From a bacterium (GTDB lineage: Bacteria; UBA8248), in assembly GCA_965261085.1 (NCBI GenBank), contig OZ253442.1:2496001-2560000 (forward strand): 64,000 nt of DNA, in the 5' to 3' direction. Position numbers and translations under genes: made by a program. The notes below the pieces were generated by a model. That model was given only the letters and a program-made list of their open reading frames with translations. It had not been told where the DNA came from and ran no database searches. This document shows, piece by piece, positions 18,068 to 21,673 of the stretch. Numbering within the stretch: the stretch's first letter is position 1; each line of letters opens with the position of its first letter.

Positions 18068-18170
18068 CTTAGTTTACATTAAGTTTGCGCCCACATTTGC
18101 GCCCGGCTGCGCAGGGATGCGGCAAAAAAAACGGGGATTTTCCCGCGACGGTGGAATGAAAGGGGGCAGA

Positions 18171-18920
18171 ATGAACGAGTACGGAAAAAAGGACGAGAGG
18201 GAGGCGCTCCGGCGCGACCCGGTCCGTCTCAGGCTGAAGGAACTCCTGCGGAGCAACGACCTCACCCTCTCCGCGGTATCGCTGGCCATCGGCCGCAACC
18301 AGACCTATCTGCAGCAGTACGTTGACCGCGGCGTGCCCGTGGTGCTCGGATACCGCGATAGCGAAACCCTGGCCGAACTCCTCGGATGCGACCCTGAGGA
18401 ACTCCGCCACGAGACCGTGCCGAAACGAAAACCCATGACGCGCAAGCGGCCCGGGCCGCTGCCCGGGCTTCCCGGCGCGCCGGTGGTGGCCGTCCCGGAG
18501 ATCACGTCGGAGGCCGCCGTCGCCGAGGCGCTCACCGGCGAGCGCGCCCCGGAACTCGAGCGCTGGGGCTGGCCGTTGAACATCATCCGCTACGAGTCGG
18601 GCGCCGCGCTCGGGAACCTGCGCATCATCAGGGTGCGGGGCAACTCGATGGAGCCCGAGATGCGCGAGGGTGACCGCATCCTGGTCGACGCCTCGAACAA
18701 GCTGCCGGTCACGGGCGAGAAGTACTTGCTCTGGGACGGCAACGGGCTGGTCGTCAAGCGGGTCGAGGTGGTCCACCGTGATGCGGCGGACGGGGACGAA
18801 CCGCCCCGGCTCAGGCTGATCTCCGCCAACCCCGACTACGCCCCCTATTCATGCCTCGCCCGGGACGTCCACGTCTTCGGCAAGGTGTGGTGGGTGGTGG
18901 GGCGGGTGGCGCATGGATGA
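18171..18920 (+). CDS. CI/LexA-like repressor, HTH plus S24 peptidase
   Basis: N-terminal LSAVSLAIGRNQTYLQQY HTH; VRGNSMEP (Ser) and VVKRV (Lys) catalytic motifs, LISANPDY; divergent from the Cro-like gene. Confidence 0.9.
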   Translation: MNEYGKKDEREALRRDPVRLRLKELLRSNDLTLSAVSLAIGRNQTYLQQYVDRGVPVVLGYRDSETLAELLGCDPEELRHETVPKRKPMTRKRPGPLPGLPGAPVVAVPEITSEAAVAEALTGERAPELERWGWPLNIIRYESGAALGNLRIIRVRGNSMEPEMREGDRILVDASNKLPVTGEKYLLWDGNGLVVKRVEVVHRDAADGDEPPRLRLISANPDYAPYSCLARDVHVFGKVWWVVGRVAHG

Positions 18921-19042
18921 CGCAGGGAATGTCGGCAGGTCGGAGGACGGGTAAGGGAAAACGGTCAATGAGACGGGATTGGGAAAACCAGTGTACCGAA
19001 CCGTTCGAACAACATGCTTGCATTCAAGGGGTCGTCCACATA
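18902..19042 (+). mobile_element. Orphan IS1111-type non-coding region/right end with internal deletion
   Basis: Colinear with the reverse complement of 19390-19660: about 61/68 identical at 18925-18991 and 37/51 at 18992-19042 (hand alignment); ~129 nt missing between the blocks. Confidence 0.85.
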
Positions 19043-19159
19043 CATTCTGTCGTCGGGTGAGATCGTCGCCGGCGCCAGAGGCAGTTGTTGATATTGCGCG
19101 GCGTAGTCGGTTTGGACCCATGCTTTCCTGACCCCCATCACCCCACGGTTGAATGGTTC
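19043..19159. mobile_element. Small IS66-type MITE-like unit (degenerate)
   Basis: Inverted CATTC-N7-GGGTGA boxes at 19043-19060 (+) and 19137-19155 (-); both tips interrupted by later insertions. Confidence 0.55.
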
Positions 19160-19389
19160 GTAACCATTCGGTGGCAGGGTGATGATAGAGGCGAGGCCAG
19201 CAGCGAGCCGTTGTTCTGCCCGAATGTGGTCGCCCCGACTAAGTGCTTCTGTAATACGATGGCACTAGGAAAATCGGGCGGCTGCGGTACATGACCAATA
19301 TTTTCAACTTGGTCGACATGTCCTTGAACCCGCCGTCCAGTTCGAATCAGCCGATGCTGTGGTTTGCTCTATCACCCCGCGACCGAATG

Positions 19390-19660
19390 TGTATGGACGC
19401 GCCCCAAAATGCAAGCTTTTTCTTCGGACAGTTCGGCGCAATGTGGTCAGGCGCAGTCGTGTATTCGGCCTCTAGATTGCGGCGTTTCCCTCTTGCCACG
19501 GGCCCGTATGGAGATGCGCGGATCGGGTCCGAATCGCTTACGCGAGCTTGAAAGCTCTCCATTCAGGTCCTGGTTTTCCCGATCCCGTCTCATTGACCGT
19601 ATGCCCCTTACCTGTCCTCCGACCTGCTCACATTCCCGGCATTATCCGCTCGCCTGCCGC
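19390..19660 (-). ncRNA. Putative bridge/seek RNA region of the IS1111 element
   Basis: 271-nt NCR; stem GGATCGGG/CCCGATCC encloses GAATGG-[GAGC/GCTC hairpin]-GTAAGC matching the target; ATACACGA matches the circle junction. RNA ends unknown. Confidence 0.75.
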
Positions 19661-20686
19661 TCAGGCGGCCGGCACCGGCTCCTTGTAGACCTCTTTTTTC
19701 GTCATCAGCGCCCAGGCGATGCGCGCCATCCTGTTGGCCAGCGCCACCGCGACCAGCATACGCGGCTTTCGCGCCAGCATCCGGGCCAGCCATGAGCCCG
19801 GCGGAGCGCCGCGCCGGACCGCCCAGCGCACCACCGTCATCGCGCCTATGATCAACAACCGCCTGACGTCGCGCTGGCCCATCTTCGATATCCTGCCCAG
19901 CCGGGGCTTGCCACCGGTGGAGTGCTGCCGCGGGACGAGCCCGAGCCAGGCGGAGAAGTCGCGACCGCGCCGGAAGCTTTCCATCGGCGGCGCGAAGGCC
20001 TGGATCGCCATCGCCCCGATCGCCCCGATCCCCGGTATGCTCATCAGGCGCCTCGCCTCCTCGTCTTGGCGCGCACTCGCGAGAAGTTGCCTCTCCAACT
20101 CCCCGATCTTCGCATTGAGGCCGGCGATCTGATCGAGCAGAACCCCGCCCAGATCGCGGACCGCCTCGGGCAGGCCCAAGCCCGGATCTGCAACGGCCGA
20201 CGCCAGCCGCGCGACATGGGCGGGACCCTGGGGAGCAACGACGCCGAACTCCGCCAGATGGCCGCGCAGCGCGTTGATCGTCTGGGTGCGCTGTCGCACC
20301 AGCAAATCGCGCGTGCGGAACAGCATCCCTCGGGCCTGCTGCTCTTCAGTCTTCACGGCCACGAAGTGCATGGTCGGGCGAGAGGCCGACTCGCAGATCG
20401 CCTCCGCATCAGCCTCGTCGTTCTTGTGGCGCTTGACGAAGGGTTTCACGTAGATCGGCGGGATAAGCTTCACCTCATGGCCGAGCTTGCCGATCTCACG
20501 CCCCCAGTAGTGCGCGCTCGCACATGCCTCCATCGCCACCAGGCACCGCGGCTGCGAAGCCAGAAAGCCCAACACCTTCGCCCTGGTAAGCTTCTTCCGG
20601 AACGCGACCGATCCGTCCGGGCGCGTGCCGTGGAGTTGAAAGCTCTGTTTTGCCAGATCGATGCCGATGATGTGAACCTGTTCCAT
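19661..20686 (-). CDS. IS110/IS1111 DEDD transposase (bridge recombinase)
   Basis: IGIDLAK, AMEAC, KNDEADAEAI, WLGLVPRQHSTGGK; 341 aa from ATG 20686. Confidence 0.96.
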   Translation of the reverse strand: MEQVHIIGIDLAKQSFQLHGTRPDGSVAFRKKLTRAKVLGFLASQPRCLVAMEACASAHYWGREIGKLGHEVKLIPPIYVKPFVKRHKNDEADAEAICESASRPTMHFVAVKTEEQQARGMLFRTRDLLVRQRTQTINALRGHLAEFGVVAPQGPAHVARLASAVADPGLGLPEAVRDLGGVLLDQIAGLNAKIGELERQLLASARQDEEARRLMSIPGIGAIGAMAIQAFAPPMESFRRGRDFSAWLGLVPRQHSTGGKPRLGRISKMGQRDVRRLLIIGAMTVVRWAVRRGAPPGSWLARMLARKPRMLVAVALANRMARIAWALMTKKEVYKEPVPAA

Positions 20687-20973
20687 GGATTCCCCTCCTG
20701 CAGGGCGGTAACGACACCACCTCACCACAGTGTGATGCCTTCGGGAGGGCGCGTCCATCCCATCGCTTACAATGGTTCGACGACGTGGACGCGACGGGAT
20801 GCGCAGAAGTTTCAATGAATCCGCTTTTGTTTTGATTACGAATTGCAGAAGGCAGATTCTGAACAAGTTCGGAAAATTTATATATCCAAAATAATTTCAA
20901 TAAGATATAGGGGTTTCATAGCCGATCAAAACCTCTTAATTTCTCTAAGACGGGCAAAAACGTAAACCAGAAA

Positions 20974-21037
20974 CACTGCCCTTTGAGGGTCGGGCTTCTC
21001 CTTCTTCAGTCGGAATTGACCCTCAAGGGGGGGAGTG
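20974..21037. repeat. Palindromic REP/MITE-like element, internally deleted copy
   Basis: Ends CACTGCCCTTTGAGGGTC / GACCCTCAAGGGGGGGAGTG; longer copy at 43091-43286. Confidence 0.75.
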
Positions 21038-21151
21038 GTTTTTTCGTCGGAATAGTTTTTGCTACATCCCCGGGGCGATTCGCGTACTGTGAGGCGGACG
21101 TGCAGGTTCCCCCATGCTCATTGTAGGATCGTGCGAGGAGGCAGCCATAAC

Positions 21152-21673
21152 ATGTGCGAATTCATCATCGCGCAGACCGAAGAGGACTACCGGGAGGCTG
21201 CGGCGTTGCTGCGCGAGTACGAGGCCGGTCTCGGAATCGACCTGTGCTTTCAGGGTTTTCCCGAAGAACTCGAAAGCCTCGAGCGTATGTACGGTCCGCC
21301 GGGCGGAAGGTTTCTCATCGTGCGCCAAGGAGAGCTGACCGCGGACTGCGTCGCCTTGCGGGATTTGGGCGGAAAAATCTGCGAGATGAAGCGTCTCTAC
21401 GTGCGCCCTGACTTCAGGGGACGCGGCCTGGGGAGAAGGTGCGCGGAGGAGATTGTCCGCATCGCGGGGGAGATGGGCTACACCGCTATGCGCCTCGATA
21501 CGCTGCCCACGATGCGTGAGGCCATCGCCCTTTACCGCTCGATAGGTTTCATGGAGACCGCCCCTTACGCCGAAAACCCCGTAGAGGGGGTGGTTTTCAT
21601 GGAGTTGGGGTTAATCCCGACCGATGAGGGAGGGATTGACACGACTGATGAAGGCGCGATTACACAGGAATAG
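21152..21673 (+). CDS. GNAT N-acetyltransferase
   Basis: CEMKRLYVRPDFRGRGLG, MRLDTL..AIALYRSIGF. Confidence 0.9.
   Translation: MCEFIIAQTEEDYREAAALLREYEAGLGIDLCFQGFPEELESLERMYGPPGGRFLIVRQGELTADCVALRDLGGKICEMKRLYVRPDFRGRGLGRRCAEEIVRIAGEMGYTAMRLDTLPTMREAIALYRSIGFMETAPYAENPVEGVVFMELGLIPTDEGGIDTTDEGAITQE

Follow-up and report, generated by a model that had tools for sequence, protein, structure and literature searches.

Predicted RNA guides of an IS1111-group insertion sequence match the ends of IS66-type elements in a UBA8248 bacterium

The stretch of DNA analysed here (the window: 64,000 nucleotides, positions 2,496,001 to 2,560,000 of contig OZ253442.1, assembly GCA_965261085.1, from a bacterium of the GTDB lineage UBA8248) carries at 19390-20765, on the minus strand, an intact insertion sequence (IS) of 1376 bp that belongs to the IS1111 group of the IS110 family and that is called IS_A below. 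IS_A very probably inserts by an RNA-guided, site- and orientation-specific recombination of its circular form with the tip of IS66-type terminal repeats. What is observed is the anatomy of the element, the site and orientation of its copies, the covariation of three guide segments with the sequences that they match, and a set of conserved RNA helices. A first-pass annotation of the window had proposed that guide and target form a natural pair directed at the ends of IS66-type elements. This proposal is supported by the copies of IS_A in the genome, by the IS66 transposase carried by the larger target elements, by the covariation of guides with target flanks and by that of the donor segment ATACACGA.

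All features of IS_A given in this text lie on the minus strand. The left end consists of a 7-bp terminal extension, CGATGGG (20759-20765), whose first base, C, is the core base shared with the target, and of the subterminal inverted repeat ATGGACGCGCC (20748-20758). At the right end, the repeat GGCGCGTCCAT (19393-19403), a perfect complement of the left one (11/11), is followed by a 3-bp extension, ACA (19390-19392). The limits of the element are given by an empty paralogue and by four identical copies. The transposase gene (19661-20686) encodes a protein of 341 residues with DEDD/RuvC-like and Transposase_20 domains (PF01548, 2.5e-15; PF02371, 7.3e-22), which also matches the NCBIfam profile NF033542, "IS110 family RNA-guided transposase" (5.5e-96). 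Non-coding DNA amounts to 79 nt upstream of the gene versus 271 nt downstream (19390-19660), where a seekRNA or bridge RNA is predicted to be encoded. In IS1111 elements as described, a 7-bp left and a 3-bp right extension, subterminal repeats and a downstream non-coding region are the rule (PMC11187229). Features of the group found in IS_A are the domains, subterminal repeats in the range of about 11-13 bp with their 7- and 3-bp extensions, and the downstream non-coding region. The length of the transposase and its motif GLVPRQHSTG fit the IS1111 rule of 330-350 residues and GL-P----S/TG, and a single site, a single orientation and no target duplication, also the rule in this group, are observed for the four copies and with the empty paralogue. 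The assignment to IS1111, first made from the letters of the sequence, is confirmed by domains, ends, non-coding region and copies.

Removal of 19390-20765 joins GTAAG (20770-20766), the outer 5 bp of an interrupted IS66-type terminal repeat, to its inner 19 bp, CATTCGGTCGCGGGGTGAT (19389-19371), and rebuilds a 24-nt repeat. As the first-pass annotation had recognised, the rebuilt 24-mer is the inverted partner of the intact repeat GTAACCATTCGGTGGCAGGGTGAT at 19160-19183 on the plus strand, to which it is identical at 20 of 24 positions. The body of the interrupted object extends over 19160-19389 and continues at 20766-20770, and the 8-bp sequence AATGGTTC is found on both of its sides (19152-19159 and 20771-20778, plus strand). 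Because this stretch of 235 bp has no open reading frame (ORF) and is bounded by the repeats and by an 8-bp duplication, it can be described as a miniature, non-autonomous IS66-type element.

A BLASTN search against the 4.27-Mb genome gives four full copies of IS_A, all 100% identical, and partial relatives at six places (seven alignments). In the four copies, the left flank is GTAAG and the right flank is CATTCGGTCG(A/C)GGGGTGAT, and all lie in one orientation with respect to these flanks; the outer sequence differs between copies. In each case the insertion point is GTAAG|CATTCGG, 5 bp inside an IS66-type terminal repeat, and the single base C is common to the site and to IS_A. Alignment of the flanks, which had been suggested as a check with GTAAS|CATTC as the expected junction, places 4/4 copies at GTAAG|CATTC and none in unrelated sequence. 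Three contexts are represented: the left end of a 3.3-kb element, the right end of the same type of element, and the miniature element. A second copy of the 235-bp element (genome positions 3722726-3722960), about 98% identical to that of the window, carries a vacant site and is flanked by its own 8-bp duplication, CTTCTGTC. Since this empty paralogue keeps an intact junction, the insertion of IS_A was precise and made no duplication.

IS66 elements have terminal repeats that start with GTAA and generate 8-bp target duplications. The ends of the target elements studied here, GTAAG and GTAAC, and four 8-bp duplications, CCTTTGCC and CAAATTTT around the two full 3.3-kb copies and AATGGTTC and CTTCTGTC around the two miniature copies, fit these features. 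In both 3.3-kb elements the repeat is present at either end; IS_A occupies both ends of one of them, in mirrored orientation, and a single end of the other. Their 772-residue ORF is an IS66-family transposase (NF033517, 5e-83; PF03050, 2.2e-56), of which the first ~330 residues have no match in Pfam, and in the element at genome 3786050-3789480 (L031) a DruA-like ORF of 304 residues (PF14236, 1.3e-36) overlaps it. Canonical IS66 elements typically have tnpA and tnpB upstream of the transposase gene. As only the 772- and 304-residue ORFs are present and these two genes are missing, the 3.3-kb element is an atypical member of the family.

The perfect identity of the four copies would also be expected if IS_A had entered an IS66-type repeat a single time and had then been spread by movement of the IS66-type or miniature elements, or by gene conversion. 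The copies at genome positions 279536 and 3789427 moreover share at least 60 bp of inner flank, which is explained by their location in copies of the same 3.3-kb element. This history is nevertheless highly improbable. The three contexts have only the 24-bp repeat in common, the shared outer sequence of 5 bp is too short for conversion, and the 8-bp duplications abut the outer GTAAG, as if the IS66-type elements had moved with the repeat still whole. Spread by copying would also leave unexplained that the guides of IS_A spell the site and that, in homologues, guides change together with the site.

The 12-mer GTAAGCATTCGG occurs at six sites, two of them uninterrupted and four interrupted, versus 0.42 expected from base composition; all six lie in IS66-type repeats and four are occupied by IS_A. 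One may ask whether an RNA reading the left half alone (GTAAG-C) would be sufficient, the link with IS66 ends being then a by-product of where this word occurs, and the 15 sites of one relative, which share mainly GTAAC|CG, point that way. However, the genome contains 734 GTAAGC, 144 GTAAGCA and 5 uninterrupted GTAAGCATTC, and yet the four copies are all at full 12-mers, while the three GTAAGCATTC sites located outside the repeats are empty. Reading of the left half alone therefore has hardly any chance of accounting for the insertions of IS_A.

The sequences that match both flanks are located in the downstream non-coding region. When 18900-21100 was read on both strands, all the strings named in the first-pass annotation were found at their positions: GGGATCGGG (19586-19578) and CCCGATCC (19527-19520) enclose GAATGG (19564-19559), a GAGC/GCTC hairpin (19557-19554 with 19547-19544) and GTAAGCGAT (19541-19533). 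In the sense of the RNA, the order is GGGAUCGGG-AAAACCAGGAC, CUGAAUG, GA, GAGC-UUUCAA-GCUC, GC, GUAAG-C-GAU, UCGGA-CCCGAUCC. A stem is formed by GGGAUCGGG (19578-19586) and CCCGAUCC (19520-19527), and an inner hairpin (19544-19557) separates two target guides. The first of them, T (CUGAAUG, 19560-19566), is complementary, one U:G wobble included, to CATTCGG, the top-strand sequence of the right flank. The second, B (GUAAG, 19537-19541), is identical to positions -5 to -1 of the left flank and is followed by the core C and GAU (19533-19536). GUAAG-C thus reproduces the left flank and the shared C, and GAU the next bases of the left end of IS_A, so that C-GAU corresponds to the first four bases of this end, in a handshake-like manner.

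Homologues were collected from two sources: 20 full elements from 41 related genomes (20/41 with a match, the genome of IS_A included), and 80 further loci, the best of 350 relatives found in a scan of one genome per species. Anchored best-match parsing was successful for 86 of 100 loci, which yield 68 unique site-guide combinations and 40 guide classes; the 14 loci left unparsed are L007, L035, L039, L051, L053, L054, L056, L057, L078, L098, L104, L105, L109 and L113. Across the parsed homologues, T has 7-9 nt and B has 5 nt, and GAU is present in 84/86 (GAA in the other two). Guides and flanks were compared using one site per guide class, the first listed. B agrees with its own left flank at 4.45 of 5 positions on average, versus 1.37 with the flanks of other classes (24 classes at 5/5, 10 at 4/5 and 6 at 3/5; n = 40), and the run of T paired with its own right flank has a mean length of 7.03 nt, versus 3.67 nt with other flanks. 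Among 10,000 shuffles of the pairing, none reached the observed sum of matches. After a second de-duplication, giving 67 unique sites, the five positions of B agree in 57, 57, 63, 61 and 62 sites, respectively. At the core, the guide has the same base as the start of the left end in 67/67 sites, and as the start of the right flank in 66/67. One group of homologues has T instead of C at the core, and this T is found at the left end and in the right flank alike.

These observations bear on whether the target could be recognised by the transposase itself, the matches in the non-coding region being relics of past recombination. That region does hold GTAAGCGATTCGG, close to the target GTAAGCATTCGG, which could resemble a captured copy of the target. 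Against such a relic, the post-core sequence GAUUCGGA is conserved in homologues with unrelated targets, and only the 5 nt before the core vary, together with a separate antisense segment located on the other side of a conserved hairpin. Furthermore, transposases that are 75-85% identical are found at quite different sites, each matching its own guides, and for other IS1111 members RNA dependence has been demonstrated experimentally (PMC11187229). Recognition by the protein alone is accordingly scarcely believable, and reading of the target through an RNA is preferred.

The first-pass annotation had described the repeat at 19160 as an intact and vacant target. It is intact; as a target it is only near-cognate, because it reads GTAAC|CATTCGG, with a mismatch at position -1 and a fully matched right half. 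Sites of the type GTAAC-CATTCGG, one of which lies outside a repeat, are occupied in 0/3 cases versus 4/6 for GTAAG sites, numbers too small to decide. In the homologues, position -1 disagrees in 5/67 sites, and such mismatches are therefore tolerated at times.

The fold of the region was examined by aligning the non-coding regions of 39 elements, each of which represents a different guide class (L075 was left out). The consensus contains 35 pairs, with 98.5% of cells paired and compensatory change in 10 pairs; none of 500 shuffles was as good, and slid controls had 23-39% of cells paired. Its helices are an enclosing helix, the target-loop stem, the inter-guide hairpin and a two-part donor stem. 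The enclosing helix 1 is formed by AAUGUGAGC (19626-19634) and GCUUGCAUU (19408-19416) and has 9 pairs, 3 of which are changed on both sides. It encloses the whole guide RNA, and one of its pairs changes from AU to GC in 13/39 sequences. In the target-loop stem (helix 3, 8 pairs), 99% of cells are paired, and in the inter-guide hairpin (helix 5) a compensatory change from AU to GC is seen in 6 sequences.

On the donor side, the first-pass annotation had matched two segments, ATACACGA (19464-19457) and TCCATAC (19512-19506), to the junction expected from joining the two ends of the element. The first match stands. The donor guide AUACACGA (19457-19464) corresponds to the last 5 nt of the right end, the core and GA, and this relationship is kept in 80/83 homologues, across 8 different right-end pentamers; the 83 are the parsed loci with a -35 to -10 spacing of 16-18, three others having been dropped as probable mis-parses. 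The second match does not. UCCAUAC (19506-19512), the 5' single strand beside the donor stem, is nearly invariant. Because it is unchanged in homologues with different right ends, it is not read from the right end at the junction, and more likely pairs, tentatively, with the nearly invariant left end, ATGGG or ATGGA.

It had also been noted that joining the ends would create the promoter-like arrangement TTGCAT-17-CACGAT. The -35-like TTGCAT (19409-19414) is indeed present, with 17 nt between it and the final two bases of IS_A, and the match to a promoter is limited to 7/12 consensus positions (4/6 and 3/6), below the threshold of the scan. Among the 86 homologues, the spacing is 17 in 76, 18 in 5, 16 in 2, 14 in 2 and 11 in 1; A2 and T6 are constant in the second hexamer. 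Junction promoters have been described for IS1111 circles and are active in a few cases (PMC11187229). TTGCAT is also part of one strand of the conserved enclosing RNA helix, in which compensatory change is seen, so that its conservation may have either cause and is not in itself proof of a promoter. In the integrated copy of IS_A, a promoter and terminator scan gave 0 promoter-like and 0 terminator-like sites.

The following mechanism can be proposed. The DEDD transposase would act with an RNA produced from the 271-nt region downstream of its gene. In this RNA, the stem GGGAUCGGG/CCCGAUCC would hold an internal loop, the 5' strand of which, CUGAAUG, would pair with the top strand CATTCGG of the right half of the target. 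The 3' strand of the loop, GUAAG-C, would pair with the left half, GTAAG-C, on its bottom strand. GAU, after the core, matches the left end of IS_A and is expected to pair only once the strands have been exchanged. AUACA-C-GA, which flanks a second stem, would read the junction of right and left ends in a circular form of the element. Recombination of this circle with the target, at their common C, would then place IS_A, in a fixed orientation and with no duplication, 5 bp inside the terminal repeats of IS66-family elements and of their miniatures. The insertion would split the repeat that the IS66 transposase needs.

Several points weigh against this reading. Production of the RNA and its binding by the transposase, formation of a circle, a junction promoter and loss of IS66 mobility are predicted from sequence. 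No circle junction was seen in the contigs of four public sequencing runs, these contigs being short. Taken alone, the non-coding region of IS_A does not fold better than shuffled sequences (z = -1.41; 20/200 as good); an Rfam scan of 18500-21500 at E ≤ 1 matched no family. An outer donor stem (GCGCAUC with GACUGCGC), taken from the single-sequence fold, was dropped, as it is not kept in homologues (C-A at one pair in 25/39). UCCAUAC remains constant where the right end differs and covaries with nothing testable. The second base of the target is A versus G in donor and guide, and T needs its U:G wobble. The homologues are related to each other, so that the counts of covariation overstate the number of independent events. 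Finally, the relative with guides GUAAC/CCGAACG (L036-L052) is found at 15 sites, 13 of them in OZ253470.1, many of which share only GTAAC|CG; a T run of at least 6 was found in only 6 of the 14 sites examined, and several sites lie in ordinary genes (GST, ThiF, HbpS-like) or in an IS256-type transposase gene. Pairing with the right flank is thus not always required in the clade, which suggests relaxed reading of this flank, or off-target spread, in that relative. Similarly, L011, with guides GUAAG/CCGAACG, sits at GTATC|CGTTCATC beside an ankyrin-repeat gene.

Outside the genome studied here, a link between GTAA-type guides and IS66 ends is only hinted at. HTH_Tnp_1 genes, as in the tnpA of IS66 and IS3, are found beside L081 and L097, L007 is inserted in a repeat that belongs to the family of the window repeat, and the right flank of L059 gives a sub-threshold IS66 match (20 bits versus a cut-off of 23.1). 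In the right flanks of GTAA-guided relatives (35 ORFs at 20 of 25 parsed loci), the rest are ordinary genes or have no match. Two plasmid relatives, H19 of Agrobacterium vitis and H2 of Methylocystis rosea, were considered as IS66-end cases and set aside, as they are not beside IS66 genes.

Two damaged relatives, 85% and 90% identical, respectively, are present in the genome itself. The one at 1443327-1444017 is truncated at its 5' side, has guides ACGGU/CAGAUUU and lies at ...|CAAATCTG, a type of site that recurs for L010, L022 and L073 in other genomes. The one at 1872200-1873025 has an internal deletion, guides GUAAG/CCGAAUG and flanks GTAAT|GATCGTTTCGG. In the window, 18902-19042 (plus strand), directly after a Peptidase_S24-like gene (18117-18920, plus strand; PF00717, 2.9e-11), is a solo remnant of an IS1111-type 3' non-coding region. 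Compared with a paralogue at genome 1192341-1192601, it has neither the target loop nor the donor stem, and its end, still ...CCACATA, lies against CATTCTGTCGTCGGGTGAG, a further member of the same repeat family.

The surroundings of IS_A are themselves nested. The 235-bp element that carries it sits in the end repeat of a second miniature of about 116 bp (19043-19159), with the duplication AATGGTTC. A paralogous region near genome 1192718 has the second miniature without the 235-bp one, and contigs of the public runs show the same unsplit form. A joint of 19151 to 20771 in these contigs was considered as a trace of excision and rejected, as it equals the paralogous region. A repeat, GCGGATTCATT.AAAC..CTGCGCATCC after GTAATCAAAACGAAA, is found in the window at 20779-20830 and at 15 other places (16 occurrences with at most 6 mismatches). 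At about half of the 16 copies, an IS66-type repeat or the end of an IS1111 element follows some 20-30 bp downstream, and IS66-type elements seem to prefer a site beside this repeat.

Insertion into the ends of other transposons has precedents. IS4321 and IS5075 are IS1111-type elements that reportedly insert in the ends of Tn21-family transposons. From what is described of them, they share with IS_A the subterminal repeats and the use of a single position and orientation within another transposon's terminal repeat; they differ in that IS_A targets the repeat of IS66-family and miniature elements, 5 bp from the tip, with other guides. The target logo of IS4321 is said to match an earlier report (PMC11187229). 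The seekRNAs described for ISEc11, ISPa11 and ISKpn4/ISPst6 (PMC11187229) also come from a downstream non-coding region, in elements with 7- and 3-bp extensions and the GL-P----S/TG motif. In these systems, as described, the segment complementary to the top strand is 5' of the one that matches the bottom strand, the two overlap in the target, and natural reprogramming is seen among relatives (PMC11187229). The order found in IS_A, CUGAAUG 5' of GUAAG-C, agrees with this IS1111 order, top-strand complement first (PMC11187229). In contrast, the targets described for these elements are a short linear site, REP (repetitive extragenic palindromic) sequences and attC (PMC11187229), and the RNA of IS_A is a predicted one. 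The IS1111-attC group (ISPst6, ISKpn4, ISPa25) is likewise specialised on a recombination site of another mobile system, namely integron cassette sites instead of the transposon ends used by IS_A.

The bridge RNA of IS621 has, according to the available descriptions, target- and donor-reading parts that read both strands around a shared core, as proposed for IS_A (PMC11208160, PMC11208158), and its handshake bases, next to the core, fit the other partner once the strands have been exchanged and not before, as GAU would (PMC11208158). IS621 differs in belonging to the IS110 group and in having its RNA in the left end, a reversed order of guides and the core CT (PMC11208160, PMC11208158), whereas IS_A has the one-base core C (T in some relatives). 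In IS_A, the donor part looks more like single strands flanking a stem in a multi-branch junction than like a closed internal loop.

The mechanism, described in 2024 with the seekRNA and the bridge RNA, and the targeting of transposon ends are therefore already known. Full-text literature searches, at the level of their listings, showed no IS1111 or IS110 element for which IS66 ends are the reported target; ISfinder and the IS4321/IS5075 paper, which were outside their scope, may list such a case. The term "IS66" has 0 matches in the main text of PMC11187229 and 0 in the supplements of PMC11208160, and the supplements of PMC11187229 that were searched contain no report of IS66 ends.

The guides of the homologues give a view of what the clade aims at. 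In 9/40 guide classes, a guide is GUAAG or GUAAC, which corresponds to the start of IS66-type ends, and 5/40 classes are aimed at sibling IS1111 elements (L003/L067, L008, L034, L041, L058/L068). L003 (and L067, with an identical site) and L008 lie inside the donor-reading strand of a sibling, immediately 5' of its donor guide, and have guides GAGGU/GUAUGUC and GAGGC/GUGUAUCCG, respectively. L034 and L041 lie just upstream of the target loop of a sibling, and L058 and L068 in a sibling's right subterminal repeat. That this IS1111 clade specialises in other mobile DNA by rapid rewriting of its guides is a rather doubtful but conceivable generalisation. On this view, if the insertions disable the host transposon, the result would be RNA-guided interference of transposon against transposon, by a hyperparasite that also curbs the spread of IS66 and of rival IS1111 elements; alternatively, the repeats may simply be a safe landing site.

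For the IS1111 branch of RNA-guided recombinases, IS_A and its site form a clean guide-target pair of natural origin, with occupied, vacant and near-cognate sites in one genome. Dozens of relatives with co-changing guides and sites show which departures are tolerated, namely U:G wobble, a second-base mismatch after the crossover and mismatches at -1, and this set of guides and sites can seed rules for reprogramming. For annotation, insertion of IS_A explains split IS66 ends. The use of transposon ends as targets, known for the Tn21 family, is extended to the IS66 family and, probably, to sibling IS1111 elements, which bears on the competition between mobile elements within a genome.

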